This document shows, piece by piece, positions 11,044-31,985 of a stretch of 32,000 nucleotides of DNA. How positions within the stretch are numbered: the first letter of the stretch is position 1; every line of letters starts with the position of its first letter. Both the position numbers and the translations under genes were made by a program. Source of the stretch: Synechocystis sp. PCC 6803 substr. PCC-P (lineage in GTDB: Bacteria > Cyanobacteriota > Cyanobacteriia > Cyanobacteriales > Microcystaceae); NCBI RefSeq assembly GCF_000284455.1, contig NC_017039.1, positions 1,500,001 to 1,532,000 on the forward strand, written 5' to 3'. The notes beneath the pieces are model-generated. The model ran no database searches. It saw nothing but the letters and a program-made list of their open reading frames with translations, and was not told the DNA's origin.

Positions 11044-12153
11044 ATGCGATCGCCTTTGTTGGCCCCGTCCGAAAAGTGTCAAGCTTGGCCCCGGTTTACT
11101 CCCCCTTGGTATCTATCATCGGGCTTGGCCATGACTCTCTACACTGCCTTTGTGGCCAATCAACGTTGCTTAAACTCAGCCCGGACGAGGGAACCTGAAT
11201 ACATCAGCCAGGTAATGACCGGCTCCCAAGGAGTGCCCCTCCATGTTTGGCGATCGCCCATTCCTTCCCAAGCTAAGGGGACATTAATTGCCACCTATGG
11301 CATCACTGGCTCCCTGGAAGATCAAGGCTTTTTGCGACAATGGGGACGCTGGGCCTATGAACGGCACTATGACGTAATTTTGTTTGACTGGCGCGCCCAC
11401 GGTAAAACGGCGGAACTCTCCCCTACCCTCACCTCCGACGGTTTATATGAAGGGGAAGATTTTGTTTATTTAGCCGCCCAAGCAAAGGCTTTGGGTTACC
11501 CCGGCCCCTTTTGGTTTGGGGGTTATTCCCTGGGGGGTCAGCTTTCTCTCTGGGGGGTTTATAAGGGTCAAACTTTGGCAGATTGGGGTAACAACGACGC
11601 AATGCTAACTTCCTTTTCTCCCACAGACATTGGGGGAGCCATGGCCATTTGCCCTAGCCTTGATTCCCAGCGCTCCCTCAATTATTTAACCAGCCATCCA
11701 GTGGGACGATATTTGGAAAAGGCGATCGCCAACAAGCTGAAGGAATTGGCTTGGCAATTGCATCGTCACCATCCGGGGGAATTTGATTCCCAAGCCATTG
11801 AACGGGCTAATACTATTTGGGGCTTTGACCACAATTTGGTGATCGATCGCCTCGGATTGGCCTCTGTGGAAGATTATTACGAAGTCAGCAGTGCCTTGCC
11901 CCTGTTGAGCAAAATTGTTAAACCAACCCTATTGCTCTACGCCGCCGATGATCCCATGTTCCATCCCGCCATAGTAGAAGAATTACCCGGCTTGCAAAAC
12001 CAACTTACCGGTGTGGATTTACAGATAACCCCCAAGGGTGGCCATGTGGGCTACATTGCCAATGGTCCCTGTCAGCAGGCTAGCAACGACCCGGACGAAA
12101 ATTGGGCGATTCACCGCACCCTAGATTGGTTAGATCAAAAATCTTTGGCCTAA
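11044..12153 (+). CDS. Alpha/beta-fold hydrolase (YheT-like)
   Basis: 369 aa. Nucleophile elbow GGYSLGG. Later ...YAADDPMF... and ...GGHVGY... are consistent with the Asp and His of the catalytic triad. Confidence 0.75.
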   Translation: MRSPLLAPSEKCQAWPRFTPPWYLSSGLAMTLYTAFVANQRCLNSARTREPEYISQVMTGSQGVPLHVWRSPIPSQAKGTLIATYGITGSLEDQGFLRQWGRWAYERHYDVILFDWRAHGKTAELSPTLTSDGLYEGEDFVYLAAQAKALGYPGPFWFGGYSLGGQLSLWGVYKGQTLADWGNNDAMLTSFSPTDIGGAMAICPSLDSQRSLNYLTSHPVGRYLEKAIANKLKELAWQLHRHHPGEFDSQAIERANTIWGFDHNLVIDRLGLASVEDYYEVSSALPLLSKIVKPTLLLYAADDPMFHPAIVEELPGLQNQLTGVDLQITPKGGHVGYIANGPCQQASNDPDENWAIHRTLDWLDQKSLA

Positions 12154-12185: not shown

Positions 12186-13056
12186 GAGCGTGTTTGAAAA
12201 GTAGGGTGAAGAATGGAAAATGGTGAAAAGAATAAAATTTTCACCATAATTAATGATAATTCGAGAATTTTACAGCACGGACATCACAGATAGCCAGTGG
12301 CAATTGGTAGAACCCCATTTACCCAAAGCAAAAACTGGGGGAAGAAAACGGAAAACTAGTCTGCGGGAGATACTCAATGCTATTTTTTACATGCTCAGAA
12401 CGGGGTGTGCCTGGCGACTTCTGCCCCATGATTTTCCTAAATGGCGAACGGTCTATGGTTATTTCCAGCAATGGCACGAAGATGGTACCTGGAAAAAATT
12501 AAACCGTATCTTCCGTGAGAAAGTTCGGCTCAAAGCTGGAAGAAATACTCACCCTAGTGCCGGTTGTTTAGATTCACAGTCACTTAAAAAGGCTGGAACT
12601 GGCCAAGAAACTGGCTATGACGGCGGAAAAAAGGTCAATGGTCGTAAACGCACAATCCTCGTGGATACCATGGGATTACTTCTCGATGTTGTGGTTCACA
12701 GCGCTCATCGCTCTGACCATCAGGGTCTGATTCTACTTGCTACCTGGTTTGCTCCCCTTTGGCAGTGCCTGCAAGTTATATGGACTGACAGCACCTTTGG
12801 CGGAAAGGATTTTATTTTCTGGGTGGAGCATACTTTTGGTTGGACCTTGAATGTGGTCAGCAAAAAGCAGGGACAAAAAGGCTTTGAAGTCCTACCCCGC
12901 CGTTGGGTAGTCGAGCGCACTTTTGCTTGGTTTGGTCGTTATCGTCGTTTAAGCAAGGATTATGAATATTTACCTACCACCAGTGAGACCATGCTCTATG
13001 GTGCCATGGTTCATCTCATCCTTCAAAGGCTTGCTTAAAACTTTTCAAACACTTTC
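12186..13056 (+). mobile_element. IS5-family insertion sequence (IS1031-like group; possibly the element catalogued as ISY523 in Synechocystis), 871 bp
   Basis: 17-bp terminal inverted repeats: GAGCGTGTTTGAAAAGT at 12186-12202 and its complement-like ACTTTTCAAACACTTTC at 13040-13056 (15/17 match). TAA lies on both flanks (12183-12185 and 13057-13059), as expected for a 3-bp target duplication. A single DDE transposase ORF sits inside. Confidence 0.85.
12253..13038 (+). CDS. IS5-family DDE transposase
   Basis: 261 aa. N-terminal ...SQWQLVEPHLP...GRKRK...REILNAIFYMLRTGCAWRLLP... (insertion-element DUF4096-type HTH). DDE region ...ILVDTMGLLL..., ...IWTDSTFGG..., ...VVERTFAWFGRYRRLSKDYE. Confidence 0.92.
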   Translation: MIIREFYSTDITDSQWQLVEPHLPKAKTGGRKRKTSLREILNAIFYMLRTGCAWRLLPHDFPKWRTVYGYFQQWHEDGTWKKLNRIFREKVRLKAGRNTHPSAGCLDSQSLKKAGTGQETGYDGGKKVNGRKRTILVDTMGLLLDVVVHSAHRSDHQGLILLATWFAPLWQCLQVIWTDSTFGGKDFIFWVEHTFGWTLNVVSKKQGQKGFEVLPRRWVVERTFAWFGRYRRLSKDYEYLPTTSETMLYGAMVHLILQRLA

Positions 13057-22554: not shown

Positions 22555-22737
22555 CTAGGGGAGGAGTGAATTTTTCATCAAATCCCGGATCAGGTTATCC
22601 CGCACCATGATTTGTTGCATGGTTTCTAGTAAATAGTTAACGGTCTGCTCCCGGTCTAGTTCTTGATATTCCTGTTGCAAACACTGCAGTTGAAATTTCT
22701 GCTCTAAGGATAGGTTAAAGGCTTCGTTGTTGATCAT
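22555..22737 (-). CDS. nblA2: Phycobilisome degradation protein NblA (second copy)
   Basis: 60 aa. MINNEAFNLSLEQKFQLQCLQQ...MVRDNLIRDLMKNSLLP shows the NblA helix-loop-helix signature. Paralogous to the adjacent ORF. Confidence 0.92.
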   Translation of the reverse strand: MINNEAFNLSLEQKFQLQCLQQEYQELDREQTVNYLLETMQQIMVRDNLIRDLMKNSLLP

Positions 22738-22823
22738 GGCGATCGCACTCCTGAAAAAATGGGGCGGTCAAAAATTGTAACTAATGGCTAAGACAGCAAG
22801 CTAATTTTTTTGCCTGCCTGTGC

Positions 22824-23012
22824 TTAACCTAGGGGCTCCAGGGGAGCCTGGCGCATTAAGTCCCGGATGACGTTGGATTTAATCATCAACAGTCGAGAGG
22901 CTTGGACCAAAAGTTCCAGGGCTTGCTCCTGGCTGATGTTGGCGGTGGCATCCTGCATGCGACGGAACTCAAACATTTGTTCAATGGTGAGATCGAAGGA
23001 TTCAGGTTTCAT
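22824..23012 (-). CDS. nblA1: Phycobilisome degradation protein NblA (first copy)
   Basis: 62 aa. MKPESFDLTIEQMFEFRRMQDA...MIKSNVIRDLMRQAPLEPLG. GGAGGG lies 9 nt upstream of the ATG. Confidence 0.92.
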   Translation of the reverse strand: MKPESFDLTIEQMFEFRRMQDATANISQEQALELLVQASRLLMIKSNVIRDLMRQAPLEPLG

Positions 23013-23595: not shown

Positions 23596-24114
23596 ATGCG
23601 AATCAACCATAAGCCTCTATTAATTGCCACTGCCTTACTAACTCTCGTGCCCAATGTTGTTTGGTCTTCTCCCTTTGATGAAGATCAGGAGATTTGTCCC
23701 CAGTGGGAATGCGATCAGGCGGGAAATTGCCGCAAACTTGATCTTACCTGCGGTTCTTCCCCAGATTCTTCTGGTGCTCAGGGCTATCAATTATATTTTG
23801 ATGGGGAATTAGTGTCTGGCCCCGACGCCCAGGGTTATACATCCCAACAAGCGAAAGAAAATTGTACTTGGAATATGCAAACTAAACCGCAAATGCATAT
23901 CCGCTGTCTCTACAATGGCCAGGTCTTCGGTGATCGCCCTCCTAGTAACTCTCCTGGGTATGAACTATATTTTGATGGGGAATTAGTGTCTGGCGCCGAC
24001 GCCCAAGGTTATACGTTCCAACAAGCGGAAGAAAATTGCATTTGGAATATGCAAACCAAACCGCAAATTCACATTCGCTGTCTTTACAATGGCCAGGTCT
24101 TTAGGGAGCGGTGA
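23596..24114 (+). CDS. Secreted Cys-containing protein built from a tandem-duplicated ~58-aa domain
   Basis: 172 aa. AGGAG lies 7 nt upstream of the ATG. Signal peptide [24 protein letters not shown], then a Cys-rich stretch ([19 protein letters not shown]). Two copies follow of [43 protein letters not shown]. No family recognised. Confidence 0.75.
23782..24102 (+). repeat. 174-bp tandem duplication inside the secreted-protein gene
   Basis: Unit cores at 23782-23928 and 23956-24102 align without gaps at a 174-bp (58-codon) offset. By eye they show about 17 mismatches in ~148 nt. Confidence 0.9.
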
Positions 24115-24232: not shown

Positions 24233-25210
24233 ATGACTACTCCCGTTTTTTGTACTAATTGTGGCAACCGCCTTAGCCCCCAGGTTCGTTTCTGTGAATC
24301 CTGTGGATGTCCCGTTGCCTTGACGTCGGAGCCACCTTCCTTTTCTGGACCACCATTGTCCCCATTGCCTCCTCCCCCTCCCACCTTTAATGTCGATGAA
24401 GTTCCATCCCATAAAAGAGGGGTAACTCCTTGGATTCCTTTTTTCCTGTTATTTAGTTCTGTCGTTGTATTAGGGGGACTTTGGTGGTTGGGAGCGTTCA
24501 ATCTGCCCCAATGGAATCAATGGCTAGTAAAAATTTTGCCCACCAATACCAGTTCCCCCGTTGTTACTTCCCCTACTCCGACGGTGGCTCCCGTTGATGC
24601 CAATGCCGTAAGTTTAGAAGATTTTGTTGGCGTCTGGATGGTCATGGAAGGGGCGCCGGGGGAAGGCGGGGAAGCTATTTTTACCATGAGCTTGGAAGGA
24701 AATGTCATTGTTGTTGAGGCTGAAGGCGATCGCGTGGAATTCCCTACACTCAATGGCCGAAAACTAGAGGGCAGTGTAGTTGAAGACGGTGTAACTATCC
24801 CGATAACAGTGGAACTAAATCAGAATAAAGACCAGATTATTGTTACTGTTCTTCCCCCCAACAGTGAACTACAAGTGGGAGTGGGGCAGAGGGTAAAAGG
24901 AATTGATGATTTGGATAGTCCATCTAACTCAAGGGATAATTCCCTTAACATAGATGAAAATGTTTTAACGGAACGGCAAGCCTTAGAGCTTTTGATTGCT
25001 TGGCCGGAGATTGCGGATTGGATGCAGAGAGTTCAACAGGAAGCCCCACAGAATCAGACTCTTCTAGAAATTGTGGAAACCACCCCGCAACAATACCTAA
25101 TTCGGGCTTATGAATCTGTTAATAACCCTGGAGAACCGGGTCATACAGCTACGTTTGGTTGGTATAACGTCGATCGCCAAACCGGGGAGGTGACTCAAAG
25201 TATTCCCTAG
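24233..25210 (+). CDS. N-terminal zinc-ribbon, single-pass membrane protein with a C-terminal extracytoplasmic domain
   Basis: 325 aa. Ribbon CTNCGNRLSPQVRFCESCG, Pro-rich linker, TM (WIPFFLLFSSVVVLGGLWWLGAF), Thr/Ser/Pro linker, then a ~200-aa domain ending ...YLIRAYESVNNPGEPGHTATFGWYNVDRQTGEV (PepSY-like flavour; not verified). No Shine-Dalgarno. Confidence 0.7.
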   Translation: MTTPVFCTNCGNRLSPQVRFCESCGCPVALTSEPPSFSGPPLSPLPPPPPTFNVDEVPSHKRGVTPWIPFFLLFSSVVVLGGLWWLGAFNLPQWNQWLVKILPTNTSSPVVTSPTPTVAPVDANAVSLEDFVGVWMVMEGAPGEGGEAIFTMSLEGNVIVVEAEGDRVEFPTLNGRKLEGSVVEDGVTIPITVELNQNKDQIIVTVLPPNSELQVGVGQRVKGIDDLDSPSNSRDNSLNIDENVLTERQALELLIAWPEIADWMQRVQQEAPQNQTLLEIVETTPQQYLIRAYESVNNPGEPGHTATFGWYNVDRQTGEVTQSIP

Positions 25211-25251
25211 GGGAAGCTTAGGGTTAGGAGCCGAAAGTAAGGAGAGAGAGC

Positions 25252-26202
25252 ATGCCCAAAAATATGTCACCAATCTGTCCCGTTTGCGGACAAGAAAATG
25301 ATGCCGCAAATCGCTATTGTTCCTTTTGCGGTACTCGGTTTAATTCATCCTTGCCATCGATGGATCTTTTTCAGGCTCAAACAGTGCAAGCCCCAGCCCC
25401 AGAGCAAATGGTCTTCTCTGGCAATGGGCAAGATTTACCCAGTTTGACCAATCATCCTTTTTGGGGCGCAATTCCTGTGCTTGGATTGCTGACGGTTCTG
25501 CCCCTGGGACTTTTTATCTTCGGCATGGCCATTGATGCCAACGATTGGCCCTATGCGGCCCTACTGGTTTTTCTGCTATTTTTATTCACATTGCTAATTT
25601 TTCTTGGACAGCTTTGGGGCAATGTATCCCAGGCGAGGGAATTTATCCTTAGTGAGCGGCCATTGATCCTTTGGCGTTATAGCCCCGATGAATGGCAACA
25701 GCTTCGACAGGCTCAATTCAGTGAATCCGCCGAGGATATGCAAGAAATGGCCGGCTGTGCAGTCCCCTTTTTTGCTGGGGTGGGAACTTTGCTCGGTACT
25801 GTCCTTGGTTCTGTGGAAGGCTTTGTGGGGGCCGTGCCAGGGGCGGCGATCGGTGCCATGGCCGGATACATTTTTGGCAAAATATTGGTTCCCATAGCCA
25901 CTGGTTTGAACCAATCTACCAACCGGGAATTGTATCGAACCGATTTGCCTGTTTGGGTGGTGCTAGCTCCAGGGGAAATTTATTATAACCGTCAATATTT
26001 TCGAGCTGATACCATTGGCGATCGCCTTGAAGGGATTACCCTAGATGAAGGTGCTCTGACCTGGTTGCGTATCGAAACCTTCGCCCCCCGGGGTAGCATC
26101 ACAGCTAGTTTTGACGGCAACATTTTAGTCCCCCATCGTATGTTAGCAACCGTTAAAGCAGTTTTACCGCAATTGCAGCAATTCATCTCCGGGGAAGATT
26201 AG
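25252..26202 (+). CDS. N-terminal zinc-ribbon membrane protein with a glycine-zipper segment and a PH-like C-terminal region
   Basis: 316 aa. AAGGAG lies 7 nt upstream. Ribbon CPVCGQENDAANRYCSFCG. Two TM helices (about residues 70-120). Gly-zipper AGVGTLLGTVLGSVEGFVGAVPGAAIGAMAGYIFG. The C-terminal ~90 aa is possibly bacterial-PH-like (unverified). Confidence 0.7.
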   Translation: MPKNMSPICPVCGQENDAANRYCSFCGTRFNSSLPSMDLFQAQTVQAPAPEQMVFSGNGQDLPSLTNHPFWGAIPVLGLLTVLPLGLFIFGMAIDANDWPYAALLVFLLFLFTLLIFLGQLWGNVSQAREFILSERPLILWRYSPDEWQQLRQAQFSESAEDMQEMAGCAVPFFAGVGTLLGTVLGSVEGFVGAVPGAAIGAMAGYIFGKILVPIATGLNQSTNRELYRTDLPVWVVLAPGEIYYNRQYFRADTIGDRLEGITLDEGALTWLRIETFAPRGSITASFDGNILVPHRMLATVKAVLPQLQQFISGED

Positions 26203-27449
26203 GATTTGACCCCCAAAACAAAGCCACAATTGCCACAGAACTTCGCTCCGGCGGTAGGAGTATGGCCACATTGGGGACAGATTTGGGGTTTTGGCGGTTC
26301 CATTACCGCAACGGACGTACCGCAATGGGTACAGAATTTATCTCCTTCCTGTAAAGATTGATGACAAGCTTGGCAATAGTTGGGGGTTGAGGCTCCAGGC
26401 AAAGGCTCGAGAGATGAAGATGTAGTCTGTGTTCCTAATGATTGAGAATAAGAATCTATTTGTGGTTTTCCTACAGGAGTAAAAATCTCATCTAAAAGCT
26501 CATAGGCTTTATCAAGGCTAATACTGACTACAGAGACTAAACCATTGGGAGAAGGATCAATATCAAAAAACCATAATGAGTTTTCGGCACGAATTAACAA
26601 AGCCCCTTGCCTACCAAGTAGATTTGTTTCATTATACCCAAGAAGATCGATGGCCAGTATACAAAGACGTCGATGTAAAGATGAAATGAGAAATAGCCCA
26701 CTTTCTGTCCAAGCTATTTTGTCGCCATCACTTTCAATTAATTGACGTTGAGTCAATCTTTTGATTGTATTTAAAAAAGTGCTTTGGTCAATTGTTTGTA
26801 GTTCTTGAGGAAGGAAATGAATAATTGACCAAAATAAATAGCGCTGATCTTCATACTCTGTTACGTTGTCATAAGCCTGCAGTAAATCCTCAATTGAAAT
26901 TGACAAGGGAACTGGTTGATGCAGGATCAATGAAGCGTACTGAATACGACTATATATATCAACTAAAGCAACCAATACAGAAAACTCAGTGAGAGTACAC
27001 TGAAACGAAACATCCGTCTCCCATATGGGTGATCCAGGCTCAATATAAGCGAAGAGTGAGTTAACGAGAACATCACGCCCCTCAACGGGTTGAATTTTGT
27101 AATCTTGGCCGTCATTGACTGGGGCAATAAATAACCAAGGGGCATCATCCTCAATTTTTCCTGTCAATGCCCAAGTCCGCAGTTGACTTATCTGATGGTA
27201 ATAAATGCGAATATCAGCTAATAACAATGGATTGGCAAGAAAAGAAATCCAGTTGATGATTTCTTGATCTAATGGGGATGAAGAATTGATCCACTGATCA
27301 ACACTTGTGTCGTCTTGATTTATATTTTCTTCAGTCTCTACAAATACCTTGCCAAGGATACTTAAAGGTAGACGAAAATGTGATATTAAAAGATTTATAG
27401 ATTTTCTTGGTATAAGTAATGATTCTTTTTTTTTAATAAAATCAATCAT
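26199..27449 (-). CDS. AT-rich gene for a 416-aa protein with a C-terminal double zinc ribbon
   Basis: GGGAG lies 9 nt upstream of the ATG. The N-terminal ~340 aa has no recognisable motif. The C-terminus carries CQACHQSLQEGDKFCTHCG and CPQCGHTPTAGAKFCGNCG. Sampled 60-nt lines are about 30-37% G+C, and there is no HIP1. Confidence 0.75.
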   Translation of the reverse strand: MIDFIKKKESLLIPRKSINLLISHFRLPLSILGKVFVETEENINQDDTSVDQWINSSSPLDQEIINWISFLANPLLLADIRIYYHQISQLRTWALTGKIEDDAPWLFIAPVNDGQDYKIQPVEGRDVLVNSLFAYIEPGSPIWETDVSFQCTLTEFSVLVALVDIYSRIQYASLILHQPVPLSISIEDLLQAYDNVTEYEDQRYLFWSIIHFLPQELQTIDQSTFLNTIKRLTQRQLIESDGDKIAWTESGLFLISSLHRRLCILAIDLLGYNETNLLGRQGALLIRAENSLWFFDIDPSPNGLVSVVSISLDKAYELLDEIFTPVGKPQIDSYSQSLGTQTTSSSLEPLPGASTPNYCQACHQSLQEGDKFCTHCGTSVAVMEPPKPQICPQCGHTPTAGAKFCGNCGFVLGVKS

Positions 27450-27499
27450 AATTTATAGCTCCCAATAAATAGGTTAAATCCGTAAAAACAACAAAGAGC

Positions 27500-30289
27500 T
27501 CAAGTCAATCGCCCAGCTTGAAGATCAACAAGTATTCTATTTTTCATTGCTGCAATTTGTTCTGGTTTTAAGATTTTATCTCCTGCCGAATAAATAACAA
27601 TATCTTGCGCAACAATATCATTTGGAGATTTATTTTTAGGGTAGGTGAACAAAGTTTCTTTTTTGCCAATTTTGTCCCAAGCTCCTGCCTCATTAAAGTT
27701 AATTTCAGCATGGTTACCATTGGGTCGGTACTTACAAACATTTATTTGCTCTTTACGACTAAGCTCCTCCATTGAAGTCATAGCAACATCATCATGACCA
27801 CCTTGACCTTCAACTGGTCTGCCTTCTAACTGTGGTTTAACTTTGTTCTTGATTGCATTGTATTCAGCCTCAGTTATTTTGTTTGCTTTTTTTAAATTGC
27901 TAGCAATCTCTAAACGTTGCTCAGGACTCAAATTTTCTGTTTCATTGAGAATTTTATTGACTACATTCTGCCGAATTTGATATTTCGGAATAGTTGAGTT
28001 AGTTTGCTGGGGCGTAGTTGCTGTTTTAGTAGGGGTTTGCTGAGGGGGAGGCGTTGATTTAGCTGGAGTTTGCTGGGGCGTGGTTGCTGTTTTAGTAGGG
28101 GTTTGCTGAGGGGGAGGCGTTGATTTAGCTGGAGTTCGCTGGGGCGTAGTTGCTGTTTTAGTAGGGGTTTGCTTGGGCGTGATTATTGATTTAGCCGGAG
28201 TTCGCTGGGGCGTGATTGTTGGTTTAGTGGGAGCTTGTTGAGGAGGATGAGCCAGCTTACCAGAAATAATTGGTTTTATAGCTCTTATGGTTCGATTCAA
28301 AATTTCCCCCATATACAATGATGTGGCGGCGGTTTCCATTGCTCTACGACTTCCTTCTATGATGCTGTCTCCTCCTTGAGCCACATATTCTTTGGAGCTA
28401 ATAATTGCCTGAGTTGGAATCAAAATAGCTTCTGAAGCTCCACCTGTTAAGTAAGCAGCGCCAATTCTACCGGCCAGTCTTAACCAAGAAAATTGTCCGT
28501 CTTCTCCCCTAACAGTGGCAAGCTGTTTTGTTGTTTCCATCGCCGCATCAACTGTAGAGTCAAACCAAATATCAGGTTGTGGTATTTGATTGGCAGTGAG
28601 TATTCGACCAGAAATTTTATCTGAATAAAGTTTTCCCAAAGCCTGTAATTTTTGCCTATCAATTGGATCACCAGAGGCAATTTGCTCTCCTAATCGAGAT
28701 AGTTGTGCCATAACGTCTCCTGGTTGTCCAGGATTCATCAAATCTCCTAATCCCATTTTTCCTTCGAATATATCCTTTTCCATCTGGCTGATTCTATTGA
28801 GTAGGTGTTGTCGTTCTTCATAGTCAGCTTTAATCGCCTGCAATGCTTGACTTTGAGCATCTTGGCCCGTTGTTTCTAGGTATTCGTTGCGGCGACGCCA
28901 ATCTTCAGTTTGCTGATGGGTGCTCAGATTATTTTGATGCCAAGCATTGATTTCATTTGGGTCAATTAATCCTCCGGTGAGGATGTTGATGTAGCCTCCC
29001 TTTTCGGGATCATAGACAAGGGTGGTGTGCCGTCCATCGGGATAGGTATATTCAATGTCTTGGGGAAACGTTGTTGCACCAGGAGTGGTGGAAATAACAC
29101 CAGAGCTTGCCATGGAAGCTGAGGGAATTTGTAAACCCCCTAAAATCCATCCGAGCCAAATTGCCAAACCAGCTAAACCACTATTTAAAATAGCTTGGTC
29201 AGTTCCTCCACATTGAATCCAAGTTTGCAGGCTCTGACCACATTCAGCCCAACCGCCGTCATCGGCCCAGACCGGTTCCATTTGCCCTAATGTCAAACTC
29301 CCCGCAGTGAAGATAATAAATAGGGAGAGAGCAGAAGTTGTTGACCGCTTTCCGCTAAAGAATTGCCACAACGTAACGGCGATCGCCGCGATGAAGAATA
29401 GTCGCAGTAGGGAGGGAGCCAGCCAGAGAAGGAGAGCCGCTAGGCCAAAACCCACAGCCATACCAGAGAGAAGTTGTTGGCACTGGTCAGAGGTCAGAGG
29501 GTGGAGAGATTTACCCTTGCGGATCAGTTTTTGGGCATCTTGCCAACTAAGTTTGAGCACTAAGCGGAGAAAGTGAGTGGATTCCTGGAGTGCCACTAGG
29601 GTAAATAACAGAATCTGGAGACTGACCAGAAGATTGCCAAACAACAAAGCAAATACCAACGCCCCGGAAAAGCCCAACCATAGAATAGGAGCTTTGAACT
29701 GGCTACTCTGTTGGCAAAAACTGACGACTGTAGCAGGGAAAGACGTGATCGCTTTAAGATATTGCCCCAGGGTACCGTGTATTAATTGGGACAATAGTAT
29801 TCCCGTGAAAATCCAGAATAAACTACCTGCAATCACCTCACCGCCTAATACTAAAACGGAATCGAACCAGGGATTGGTACCAGTGAGATTAAACCCGTCA
29901 TTGACGACAACGAGTAGAAAAAGATGAAGCAGCCAAACAATAACAATGAGAAAAATTCCTAAAACTATTTGCTTGGGAATTCCTTTGAGTACCGAACCGG
30001 CGAGCCAGCCGAGGAGTTGTCCCAAGTTTTGGGGTTCTTTCATTTGTTGGGTTAATGCTGTTCCTGGCGGTGAATCGGTTGCTTCTTTAGGTGGATTCTT
30101 GCGTTCCCAAGCTTGGCCATTCCAACAGAGCCACATACCACCGGGATGTTCAATGTGCCACCAGTTCCCCTGGGCATCCTGCACCCGAAGACGGTCTAAC
30201 CAAGCAGTAAATTCTGTTGCTGAAATATGACGCTCATGCAACTGCTGACACCAATCATAATACATTTGCTCGGCTTCGACAAAGTCCAT
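27500..30289 (-). CDS. 929-aa polytopic membrane protein with a Pro/Thr-rich repeat linker and an AT-rich C-terminal module
   Basis: AGGAGA lies 9 nt upstream of the ATG, inside the 3' end of the preceding gene. The N-terminal ~100 aa is Trp-rich (..DAQGNWWHIEHPGGMWLCWNGQAWERKNPP). About 8 hydrophobic helices span residues ~105-400, followed by a ~280-aa soluble region. Seven-plus copies of an 11-aa unit (QTPTKTATTPQ / QTPAKSTPPPQ) come next, then a ~165-aa C-terminal module. No family recognised. Confidence 0.8.
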   Translation of the reverse strand: MDFVEAEQMYYDWCQQLHERHISATEFTAWLDRLRVQDAQGNWWHIEHPGGMWLCWNGQAWERKNPPKEATDSPPGTALTQQMKEPQNLGQLLGWLAGSVLKGIPKQIVLGIFLIVIVWLLHLFLLVVVNDGFNLTGTNPWFDSVLVLGGEVIAGSLFWIFTGILLSQLIHGTLGQYLKAITSFPATVVSFCQQSSQFKAPILWLGFSGALVFALLFGNLLVSLQILLFTLVALQESTHFLRLVLKLSWQDAQKLIRKGKSLHPLTSDQCQQLLSGMAVGFGLAALLLWLAPSLLRLFFIAAIAVTLWQFFSGKRSTTSALSLFIIFTAGSLTLGQMEPVWADDGGWAECGQSLQTWIQCGGTDQAILNSGLAGLAIWLGWILGGLQIPSASMASSGVISTTPGATTFPQDIEYTYPDGRHTTLVYDPEKGGYINILTGGLIDPNEINAWHQNNLSTHQQTEDWRRRNEYLETTGQDAQSQALQAIKADYEERQHLLNRISQMEKDIFEGKMGLGDLMNPGQPGDVMAQLSRLGEQIASGDPIDRQKLQALGKLYSDKISGRILTANQIPQPDIWFDSTVDAAMETTKQLATVRGEDGQFSWLRLAGRIGAAYLTGGASEAILIPTQAIISSKEYVAQGGDSIIEGSRRAMETAATSLYMGEILNRTIRAIKPIISGKLAHPPQQAPTKPTITPQRTPAKSIITPKQTPTKTATTPQRTPAKSTPPPQQTPTKTATTPQQTPAKSTPPPQQTPTKTATTPQQTNSTIPKYQIRQNVVNKILNETENLSPEQRLEIASNLKKANKITEAEYNAIKNKVKPQLEGRPVEGQGGHDDVAMTSMEELSRKEQINVCKYRPNGNHAEINFNEAGAWDKIGKKETLFTYPKNKSPNDIVAQDIVIYSAGDKILKPEQIAAMKNRILVDLQAGRLT
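28003..28246 (-). repeat. 33/66-bp in-frame tandem repeat array encoding the Pro/Thr/Gln-rich linker
   Basis: 66-bp units begin at 28005, 28071, 28137 and 28203. Units 28005-28070 and 28071-28136 differ at a single base. Each 66-mer consists of two related 33-mers. Confidence 0.92.
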
Positions 30290-30291
30290 GG

Positions 30292-31314
30292 TTACTTGTC
30301 TCCTAATTTCAGCAGTTGTTCAGCAGGAATATAGTTAACGCCGTCCTTGGTACCAATCCAAAAGTTGCCCGCCTGATCTTCCAGCATGACTTTTACCTCT
30401 TGGTTGGCTAACCCATCTGCTTCCGTCAGGGTTAACCAGTTTTCTCCTGCTAAACGAGCTAGGCCGTCATTTTCTGAGCCGAGCCAAAGCACCCCTTGGC
30501 GGTCTTGGTAAATGGAGCGTACTTTGGCCCCGGCCAATCCGTTTGCCGCTGTTAAGGTTTTTCGGACTACCCAGCCAGAGTTATTGGCTTCCAGTTGGGC
30601 CGCTCCGCCTCGGTCAAAGAAACCAGTTCCGACCCAAACCTTATTGCTGTCCTTGATCCAGAGGCTCGTAATATTATTATGGGGCAGTCCATTGCTGGTA
30701 GAGAATTTTTGACAGGTTTTCTTAAGACAATAATTGAGGCCACCCCGGGGAGCCACAGAGGAACCGAACCACATCCCCCCCTGAGAGTCTTGGGCAATGA
30801 GATTAATCATTAAATCTGGTAAACCATCAGCCATTCCTAACCAACGCCATCCCGCTTTTTCTTTCACCGCCGCCCCCTGCCAAGTGCCAATCCACAACTG
30901 CCCCTGGCGATCGAGATAGAGGGTATTGATGGGTTCACGGAAGCGGGAATCATCCGATTGATAAGCTTGGCAACGTTGACCGTCGTAATAGCTCAGTCCT
31001 TTGTTATGGGCAATCCAGAGCCAGTTTTGTCGATCAAGAACTAAAGCCTGGACAAAATTAACCGGGGGATCGCAGGTGATGGTTTTAACAATTTCTCGCT
31101 TTTGGATATCAATACCCACCACGCCATCTTTTCCCCCAGACCAAAGTATTTGATTCTGTAAAACCAGAGCTGACACTTCGTGGGGGGGACGAATTATTTG
31201 CCAACCAGGGCGTCTTTTGGATTGGAAATTGCGCCGCATTAAACCCAATAACTCCACAGAGAGGATCACAAAAATGCCCAATAGCAACAGAAAACGCCAT
31301 GGTTTCATTTTCAC
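30292..31314 (-). CDS. Membrane-anchored 7-bladed beta-propeller protein (two-component-regulator-propeller / Reg_prop-type repeats)
   Basis: 340 aa. N-terminal anchor WRFLLLLGIFVILSVELLGL. Seven repeats of the type LW.G...G (LWSGGKDGV, LWIAHNKGL, LWIGTWQGA, MWFGSSVAP, VWVGTGFFD, LWLGSENDG, FWIGTKDGV). AGGAGG lies upstream. The track start is GTG at 31314, but the ATG at 31308 has better SD spacing. The TAA stop lies 2 nt before the next gene's ATG. Confidence 0.75.
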   Translation of the reverse strand: MKMKPWRFLLLLGIFVILSVELLGLMRRNFQSKRRPGWQIIRPPHEVSALVLQNQILWSGGKDGVVGIDIQKREIVKTITCDPPVNFVQALVLDRQNWLWIAHNKGLSYYDGQRCQAYQSDDSRFREPINTLYLDRQGQLWIGTWQGAAVKEKAGWRWLGMADGLPDLMINLIAQDSQGGMWFGSSVAPRGGLNYCLKKTCQKFSTSNGLPHNNITSLWIKDSNKVWVGTGFFDRGGAAQLEANNSGWVVRKTLTAANGLAGAKVRSIYQDRQGVLWLGSENDGLARLAGENWLTLTEADGLANQEVKVMLEDQAGNFWIGTKDGVNYIPAEQLLKLGDK

Positions 31315-31328
31315 AAAGCCTCCTGGGC

Positions 31329-31985
31329 TCAGGGATTGGAATGGGGGACTAATTGACCGTCCCGGAGAAGCTGAATATCCGAGGTTAGAAATTGGGCTTC
31401 AGCTAAATCATGGGTGACGTAGAGGGTACAAGCCTGGGTGAAGTCTAAGTAATCCTGAAGATAGGTTAGTAGCTCTTCTTTTAAACCTTGATCAAGGTTG
31501 GAAAGGGGTTCATCCAACAGTAAAAAAGGCGGCCGGGGAGCTAGGGTACGGGCAAAGGCTACCCGTTTAGCTTCTCCTCCCGATAGTTGGTGGGGATAGC
31601 GATCTATCAGGGGGGCAATAGCTAATCGTGCTAACAATGGCTCAATGCGTTCTTGTTGCTCTGTTTTGCTAAGGTGGGCGAGGCCAAAAGCGATGTTTTG
31701 CTGGACAGTGAGATGGGGCCAGAGAGCCGGAGATTGAAAAACAAAACCAATACCCCTTTGGTGGGGCGGTAGATAATGCTGGGGACAACTAACCTGGCGA
31801 TCGCCAAGGTAAATTTCTCCTCCATCCAGGCGATCGAGACCAGCAATCAGTCGCAGGAGGGTGGTTTTACCGCTACCGGAACGGCCAAGAATGGCAGTTT
31901 TTCCCCCTGGAGGAATAGTTAGACATAGTTGCCGTAACACCGCCACGGAACCATAGGTTTTGCTCACCTGTTCAACTCTGATCAT
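31329..31985 (-). CDS. ABC transporter ATP-binding subunit (short, 218 aa)
   Basis: Walker A GRSGSGKTT, signature LSGGEAKR, Walker B FLLLDEP, H-loop YVTHD. Resembles importer-type (Fe3+/polyamine/sulfate class) ATPases but lacks the C-terminal regulatory domain. Any partner permease would lie beyond the window. Confidence 0.9.
   Translation of the reverse strand: MIRVEQVSKTYGSVAVLRQLCLTIPPGGKTAILGRSGSGKTTLLRLIAGLDRLDGGEIYLGDRQVSCPQHYLPPHQRGIGFVFQSPALWPHLTVQQNIAFGLAHLSKTEQQERIEPLLARLAIAPLIDRYPHQLSGGEAKRVAFARTLAPRPPFLLLDEPLSNLDQGLKEELLTYLQDYLDFTQACTLYVTHDLAEAQFLTSDIQLLRDGQLVPHSNP

Follow-up and report, generated by a model that had tools for sequence, protein, structure and literature searches.

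EspG proteins are the chaperones of mycobacterial ESX (type VII) secretion, in which they bind PE-PPE heterodimers, and they are seen as peculiar to type VII secretion in actinobacteria. Polymorphic toxins of the CDI, Rhs and LXG kinds keep their N-terminal part conserved, whereas recombination at fixed breakpoints replaces the C-terminal part between close strains. For small zinc modules, a functional analogy is offered by ZitP of Caulobacter, the N-terminal zinc finger of which binds the hub protein PopZ; for ribbons of the Zn_Ribbon_1/DZR type, we know of no partner. Features that recall these systems are found at a locus of Synechocystis sp. PCC 6803 substr. PCC-P, lying in a stretch of 32,000 nucleotides (NCBI RefSeq assembly GCF_000284455.1, contig NC_017039.1, positions 1,500,001 to 1,532,000 of the forward strand; hereafter the window). 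Three adjacent genes, slr0272, slr0273 and sll0243, carry four zinc ribbons and appear to sit at the edge of a conserved membrane module comprising an ATP-binding cassette (ABC) importer, sll0241, sll0242 and sll0243 (Table 1). The explanation that we favour, and to which we give about an even chance, is that the ribbons serve as tags for assembling or tethering a membrane complex of the polymorphic arm of Sll0242 and its EspG-like partner Sll0243, together with accessory membrane proteins.

The initial annotation, made from the letters alone, had described three adjacent genes with four copies of a single ribbon motif. A scan of the six-frame translation of the window for the strict motif C..C-N8-10-[FY]C..CG returned exactly four occurrences, all inside 24251-26375 and matching the described strings letter for letter, and none in 200 residue shuffles; two CxxC knuckles about 8-12 residues apart were present in all four. 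Profile searches likewise placed the four ribbons in one family, Pfam Zn_Ribbon_1/DZR (PF13240, PF12773). The Sll0243 ribbons scored 42 bits with Zn_Ribbon_1 and 38 bits with DZR, both over the curated cut-offs; those of slr0272 (22.9 bits, E = 7e-5) and slr0273 (24.1 bits, E = 3e-5) fell just under the curated cut-off of 25 bits, which was exceeded by the ribbon of the slr0272 homologue in PCC 7002 (26.2 bits). Open reading frames (ORFs) and hydropathy agreed with the proposed placement of the ribbons, N-terminal and ahead of transmembrane helices in slr0272 (one helix) and slr0273 (two), and C-terminal in Sll0243, which has no such helix and is predicted to be soluble. The further claim that the three proteins are not obviously alike outside the ribbons also held, in that BLASTP with a low-complexity filter (E <= 1e-3) gave no similarity among them; the ribbon matches it reported belonged to proteins of other loci. 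A recent duplication as the origin of the four ribbons was rejected, as only the motif positions are in common.

The N-terminal ribbons of slr0272 and slr0273 are the best-conserved N-terminal part among orthologues and that of slr0272 is kept in its Picosynechococcus homologue, indicating that they are coding. In the record of the B. subtilis BEST7613 chimera (AP012495.1), slr0273 is given as 280 amino acids (aa; 11248-12090) and slr0272 as 240 aa (12240-12962), with starts 3' of the ribbons; since these shorter ORFs omit both N-terminal ribbons, ribbon visibility in databases depends on the choice of start codon. Database names for these genes are only 'hypothetical' or 'zinc ribbon domain-containing protein'. 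Sequence searches of the PDB gave no match for slr0272 and a single, insignificant ribbon match for slr0273 (E = 0.39), and a promoter/terminator scan, in which terminators did not exceed the shuffled expectation, gave no help on operon calls. The glycine zipper reported for slr0273 was supported by a match of aa 161-213 to DUF6861 (PF21724; 31 bits, cut-off 28), although the Gly-zipper Pfam families scored 16-20 bits, under their cut-offs. DUF6861 has been described as an N-terminal, toxin-associated glycine-zipper membrane domain (bioRxiv 10.1101/2022.08.23.504947); in slr0273, by contrast, the match covers the glycine-rich stretch alone (profile positions 33-85, 53 of 194), is internal and is followed by no toxin domain.

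Table 1. Features of the ribbon genes and their surroundings (positions in the window; transmembrane helices from hydropathy)
Feature	Position	Strand	Description
slr0272	24233-25210	+	325 aa; N-terminal zinc ribbon, transmembrane helix (aa 68-86), then predicted extracytoplasmic domain
slr0272 ribbon	24251-24307	+	CTNCGNRLSPQVRFCESCG
slr0273	25252-26202	+	316 aa; N-terminal zinc ribbon, two transmembrane helices (aa 76-94, 101-119), glycine-zipper segment
slr0273 ribbon	25276-25332	+	CPVCGQENDAANRYCSFCG
slr0273 glycine-rich segment	~25750-25899	+	aa 167-216
sll0243	26199-27449	-	416 aa; soluble, EspG-like N-domain (~26460-27266), C-terminal double zinc ribbon
sll0243 ribbon	26319-26375	-	CQACHQSLQEGDKFCTHCG
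sll0243 ribbon	26223-26279	-	CPQCGHTPTAGAKFCGNCG
Strain-variable cassette	26409-28841	-	Sll0242 aa ~483-929, spacer and Sll0243 aa 1-347; ~2.4 kb, replaced as one block
sll0242	27500-30289	-	929 aa; SHOCT-like and WW-like module at aa 1-66 (30092-30289), ~8 transmembrane helices (aa ~105-390)
sll0242 arm		-	Coiled coil with Gly-rich helical domain, PT-repeat linker, strain-dependent terminal domain
Tandem repeat, period 33/66 nt	28001-28247	-	Encodes the PT-rich linker of Sll0242
sll0241	30292-31314	-	Membrane-anchored Reg_prop beta-propeller, 2 nt upstream of sll0242
sll0240	31329-31985	-	ATPase of an ABC importer dependent on a substrate-binding protein; permease and binding-protein genes past the window end
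slr0271	23596-24114	+	172 aa; signal-peptide-like start, two internal ~50-aa repeats
nblA1/nblA2	22555-23012	-	Phycobilisome degradation genes

Outside its ribbons, Sll0243 gave no Pfam match at E <= 0.1. When its AlphaFold2 (AF2) model (predicted local distance difference test score, pLDDT, 71 overall and ~85-90 across aa 130-330) was searched against the PDB with Foldseek, the top 16 matches were all to EspG1, EspG3 or EspG5 (E = 3.5e-7 to 4.5e-5, probability 1.0), the first match to any other protein appearing at E > 5e-3. The N-domain (aa ~62-330 by Foldseek) is predicted from this model to have an EspG-like fold, that of a type VII secretion chaperone. By sequence, a profile of 150 family members reached the PDB chains of EspG3 and EspG1 at E = 0.002-0.007; EspG was not among the 25 Pfam families most matched by 121 family members, and the N-domain was covered by no Pfam model. 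We name the domain EspG-like, and do not count it in the curated EspG family, because it has fold matches and weak profile matches without a Pfam EspG match. A profile of the N-domain collected 745 clusters at 50% identity among 1.84 billion representatives (287 at E <= 1e-10), and the hosts are, to our knowledge, mostly diderm phyla without a known type VII system.

The tail of these proteins is usually a ribbon. One to five C-terminal ribbons were present in 120 of the 143 top matches of the N-domain profile, and Zn_Ribbon_1/DZR was matched by 100 of the 121 members scanned against Pfam. Among Synechocystis strains the double ribbon of Sll0243 relatives is almost identical, with N-domains only 16-40% identical, and word-indexed homology searches with the three proteins brought up few relatives (12, 4 and 6). 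In other lineages the ribbon position is taken by SH3b-like repeats, transmembrane anchors or a SHOCT/WW-like module, and SHOCT/WW-like and ribbon modules seem to have been exchanged within the system. A search with the PADLOC defence models matched no system, its sole match being a weak winged-helix one in Sll0243 (E = 0.0012). Two module combinations were also observed: family member P0079 has a SHOCT-like and WW-like hairpin between its ribbons (aa ~420-480), of a type also seen at the N-terminus of Sll0242, and a neighbouring gene in the Verrucomicrobia locus (L016, 12607-13521) joins a ribbon with a SHOCT domain.

Like EspG, Sll0243 is predicted to be soluble and cytoplasmic, and, as with EspG and PE/PPE proteins, its gene adjoins one for a helical partner that has low-complexity linkers and is variable in its C-terminal extension. 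Unlike EspG, it has a zinc-ribbon tail, and its putative client would be the arm of a polytopic membrane protein and not a soluble heterodimer. Moreover, sll0243 is not flanked by EccC-type or other ESX core genes; neither a type VII core gene nor an FtsK-like ATPase was found in the flanks in the window or in the Verrucomicrobia, L020, Desulfuromonadales and Thiorhodococcus loci, where the outer genes were unrelated housekeeping genes.

We found that the 416-aa Sll0243 is linked most strongly to the upstream gene for the 929-aa Sll0242, and not to slr0272 or slr0273. The genes for the binding protein/fused permease, sll0240, sll0241, sll0242 and sll0243 follow one another in this order on the minus strand, co-directional and with gaps of 2-50 nt where they lie in the window, sll0243 starting 50 nt after sll0242. 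A search with an alignment of a 7-sequence subfamily yielded six genome and six metagenome loci. The loci of the EspG-like family outside Cyanobacteria came from one metagenome-assembled genome (MAG) each of Verrucomicrobia and Desulfuromonadales, from MAGs of Acidimicrobiia, from Thiorhodococcus minor and from 7 metagenome contigs. All 11 non-cyanobacterial loci that keep upstream sequence have a same-strand ORF of 305-1438 aa, in some cases ending at a contig edge, directly upstream of the EspG-like gene. Nine of the 11 ORFs are related to Sll0242, by BLAST or alignment, in at least one of three regions, namely the SHOCT-like and WW-like N-terminus, the transmembrane block with a 'DGG(W/L)xE' loop motif, and the post-membrane coiled coil with its Gly-rich helical domain. 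The remaining two are partial; that on contig L023 matches just the terminal domain of S. salina, and that on L027 has no match. Genes of the Sll0242 and Sll0243 types form an obligate pair. The Desulfuromonadales and Thiorhodococcus loci also hold homologues of sll0241 (36% and 30% identity, respectively) and all three ABC importer genes, and five Picosynechococcus plasmids likewise hold the Reg_prop gene and all three ABC importer genes, whereas the Verrucomicrobia and Acidimicrobiia loci have neither. The unit common to Cyanobacteria, Desulfuromonadales and Thiorhodococcus is thus the ABC importer, the Reg_prop protein, Sll0242 and Sll0243, with the pair alone reaching further.

From hydropathy and the lysine/arginine-rich loops, Sll0242 is predicted to have about eight transmembrane helices, with both ends cytoplasmic. 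No PDB match was obtained with its sequence, nor a significant one with a profile of its Gly-rich helical domain. Across records of PCC 6803 substrains, Sll0242 is given as 929, 885, 841, 778, 725, 715, 698 or 686 aa, which suggests that laboratory strains differ in repeat number or that the repeat has collapsed in some assemblies.

Comparison of Synechocystis strains showed that the distal part of sll0242 and most of sll0243 form a cassette with 39% G+C, against ~50% elsewhere, and without any of the 33 HIP1 sites of the whole window. Between CACIAM 05 and PCC 6803 the flanking genes are 94-100% identical (slr0272, 97.5%; slr0273, 98.4%), but Sll0242 is alike only to ~aa 483-536 and Sll0243 is ~20% identical over aa 1-347, its identity resuming exactly at the first ribbon. 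DNA similarity ends at ~28841 and restarts at ~26409, and three other allele types agree with these breakpoints within ~30 nt. No mutual BLAST similarity was found among the C-terminal halves of Sll0242 types A (PCC 6803), B (CACIAM 05) and C (locus L011), and Pfam gave nothing significant on them or on the terminal domains of other lineages. S. salina follows type A up to the PT repeats and then has an unrelated terminal domain, which is 31% identical to that on the unrelated metagenome contig L023; its Sll0243 is 79% identical to that of PCC 6803 overall, with divergence confined to the first ~70 aa. The Sll0242 homologue of Picosynechococcus has repeats and a domain with an HEVKH motif where the Gly-rich helical domain would be, and the product of the downstream gene, which retains three ribbons, has no EspG-like domain (profile E = 1.7). 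Judging by the allele swaps and this joint absence, the EspG-like domain tracks the helical domain of the arm, and the ribbon tail the constant part of the system. As a separate observation, the last ~180 aa of the Sll0242 homologues of the Desulfuromonadales (L019, 6664-9960) and Thiorhodococcus (L021, 6502-9927) loci share a Cys...His...Asp pattern and have weak papain-like matches (Peptidase_C70, E = 0.035; C39_2, E = 0.075).

The cassette swapping also raises the possibility that sll0242 and sll0243 are a classical polymorphic toxin-immunity pair, in which the C-terminus of Sll0242 would be an exported toxin neutralised by Sll0243, and the ribbons, slr0272 and slr0273 would be incidental. 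The constant N-terminal half, the replacement of the C-terminal half between close strains, the co-variation of the downstream gene, the sharing of terminal domains with distant lineages, the atypical base composition of the variable part, the Cys/His and HExxH motifs of other terminal domains and the DUF6861 match of slr0273 speak for this account. We nevertheless consider this account unlikely. The terminal domains of PCC 6803 and S. salina are unrelated, yet their Sll0243 proteins diverge over the first ~70 aa only, so that the bulk of Sll0243 tracks the helical and not the terminal domain. Typical immunity proteins are small and diverse, whereas the EspG-like domain belongs to one large conserved family; Sll0243 co-varies with the helical mid-region. 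In addition, neither Sll0242 nor its homologues showed a recognised secretion or trafficking domain, none of the known toxin families was matched, and the constant ribbon tail and the recurring ribbon-bearing neighbours would be left unexplained.

These neighbours bear on the earlier argument that three ribbon genes are unlikely to lie side by side by chance. In five loci, membrane proteins that are tagged with a ribbon but whose bodies are unrelated are encoded no more than three genes away from the pair: a DZR-transmembrane protein of 366 aa (L014), a cohesin-transmembrane-ribbon-SHOCT protein (Verrucomicrobia, L016), a YajC-ribbon protein (Desulfuromonadales, L019), a protein with a ribbon and four transmembrane helices (Thiorhodococcus, L021) and a transmembrane-ribbon-transmembrane protein (L022). 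In the four loci with long flanks, ribbon ORFs made up 4 of the 24 within three genes of the pair and none of the 36 further off (p = 0.022, one-sided Fisher test). In Acidimicrobiia, the partners bear SH3b-like repeats or transmembrane anchors instead of ribbons, and no ribbon-bearing neighbours were found. Five Picosynechococcus plasmids, in which the genes are ordered differently, have a homologue of slr0272 at a distance of 7-10 kb from that of Sll0242; the slr0272 homologue is 39% identical, with the ribbon intact (PCC 7002 pAQ7). The recurrence in other phyla and this plasmid linkage support the argument. Across cyanobacteria the neighbourhood is conserved only in part, for slr0272 by the module in Picosynechococcus; otherwise slr0272 and slr0273 are confined to Synechocystis and close relatives. 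A second genus yielded a homologue of slr0272 alone, no match to slr0273 being obtained in the plasmids. On pAQ7 (L028, 404-1165), a 253-aa ribbon-less membrane protein beside the slr0272 homologue is laid out like slr0273 and shares with it two transmembrane helices, a 'W-Y-x-P-x-EW' stretch and further hydrophobic segments; as the local match covers just 63 aa at 35% identity, we treat its kinship to slr0273 as unproven. On the PCC 7003 plasmid (L029, 14605-17490), the ribbon protein encoded downstream of the Sll0242 homologue is followed by three genes resembling prepilin-type/type II secretion pseudopilins, which are absent from the PCC 7002 and PCC 8807 loci.

That the adjacency has no functional meaning, and reflects a common Zn_Ribbon_1 prefix in a fast-evolving island whose arrangement is kept by within-genus synteny, seems to us quite improbable. 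It would fit the near-restriction of slr0272 and slr0273 homologues to Synechocystis, where all their loci are syntenic, the mutually unrelated bodies of the three proteins, and the convergent orientation of slr0272 and slr0273 to sll0243, which places them outside its operon. A slr0272 homologue of 48% identity located apart from the module (L012) would also fit, except that it has lost the first CxxC, and next to it the homologue of slr0273 has become a pseudogene, its ribbon interrupted by stop codons; thus the ribbon has decayed in the one unlinked copy. The strict motif occurs nowhere else in the window, ribbon-bearing membrane proteins recur next to the pair in independent phyla, and the linkage of slr0272 to the module extends to a second genus, where it is found on plasmids and in another gene order, all of which argue against mere coincidence.

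An accessory role in nutrient sensing or uptake, in which the Reg_prop protein and ABC importer would sense or import a periplasmic compound, Sll0242 transduce the signal and the ribbons of Sll0243, as a cytoplasmic adaptor, bind nucleic acid or the ribosome, is similarly improbable, for although the ABC and Reg_prop genes are kept with the pair in Synechocystis, Picosynechococcus, Desulfuromonadales and Thiorhodococcus, sll0238 and sll0240 are among the iron-related IutR targets (PMC11221513), the ribbon region of the family profile weakly matches PDB entries that include ribosomal and RNA-binding zinc-ribbon proteins (E ~7e-4 to 2e-2) and the weak winged-helix match lies at aa 220-257 of Sll0243, a housekeeping sensor would not usually have its alleles replaced wholesale among near-identical strains, the pair does without the ABC and Reg_prop genes in Verrucomicrobia and Acidimicrobiia, no importer substrate could be assigned from NCBIfam (all matches far under cut-offs), and the replacement of ribbons by transmembrane anchors or SH3b-like repeats argues against a nucleic-acid role.

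Our favoured explanation, that the ribbons are assembly or tether tags, would work as follows. Sll0241 would be a periplasmic Reg_prop propeller, and Sll0242 a polytopic inner-membrane protein with its long C-terminal arm in the cytoplasm, the small terminal domain of which is exchanged between strains and lineages. The EspG-like domain of Sll0243 may bind the helical part of this arm, in the manner of EspG on PE/PPE substrates, with the double ribbon as a tail that stays constant. The ribbons of Sll0243, slr0272 and slr0273 would be small cytoplasmic tags that, by ribbon-ribbon contact or through a shared partner, hold the soluble partner and the accessory membrane proteins at one membrane complex. 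The whole locus may act like a polymorphic effector locus, and the swapped terminal domains may point to a role in inter-strain conflict. As in other Zn_Ribbon_1/DZR ribbon-transmembrane proteins, the same CxxC...CxxC ribbon is found at the predicted cytoplasmic end of unrelated membrane proteins; the analogy with ZitP is limited by the different family of the ZitP zinc finger and by the presence here of ribbons, in one to five copies, on the soluble partner also.

Several points weigh against this explanation. Zn_Ribbon_1 is very common at the N-termini of bacterial membrane proteins and has no known general function; the neighbour enrichment comes from few loci, two of which (L016 and L022) are related; and the decayed ribbon of L012 is that of a single genome with ~10 kb of context. 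The TM-scores of the Sll0243 model to EspG are modest (0.45-0.49 by target length, with root-mean-square deviations of 7-10 A), and the model was built on just 11 sequences. The cytoplasmic placement of the arm is predicted solely from hydropathy and the positive-inside rule, and PT-rich linkers and swapped terminal domains are commoner in exported proteins. AF2 modelling of the arm (aa 393-929, single sequence) reached a pLDDT of 41, too low for a fold search. The terminal domains matched no known toxin family, giving just the weak papain-like matches.

A broader version of the same explanation is doubtful, if conceivable. In it, a membrane system so far unrecognised, yet widespread in diderm bacteria, would have the Sll0242/Sll0243 pair at its core, joined in some lineages by the Reg_prop protein and the ABC importer, in which EspG-like chaperones without type VII machinery would handle a polymorphic arm for release, export or regulated activation, and the ribbons would serve as homotypic address tags recruiting a changing set of accessory membrane proteins. 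The main texts of the literature library that we searched never mention sll0242, sll0243, slr0272 or slr0273, or EspG with a zinc ribbon. The parts, namely EspG chaperones, polymorphic C-terminal domains and zinc ribbons, are known in kind; their combination and taxonomic range appear to be undescribed.

Among the surrounding genes, slr0271, directly upstream of slr0272, evolves fast (49-68% identity, against 88-100% in housekeeping neighbours), serves as a neutral integration site (PMC8272380) and is reported to be strongly down-regulated under three nutrient deprivations (PMC12589917). The nblA1 and nblA2 genes lie ~1.2 kb upstream of the ribbon genes, with isiA and isiB further on, and the ribbon region is thus surrounded by nutrient-stress genes.

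If our reading is correct, the 745 or more clusters of an EspG fold without type VII genes in the flanks examined, in a family spanning cyanobacteria, proteobacteria, Verrucomicrobia and others, would revise the origin and the clients of this class of chaperone. The locus would be a tractable model, Synechocystis PCC 6803 being genetically easy and the slr0271 neutral site adjacent, and could help explain the common but functionally opaque Zn_Ribbon_1/DZR module on membrane proteins. Finally, the exchange of cassettes among strains points to a so far unstudied level at which cyanobacterial strains may compete or recognise self.

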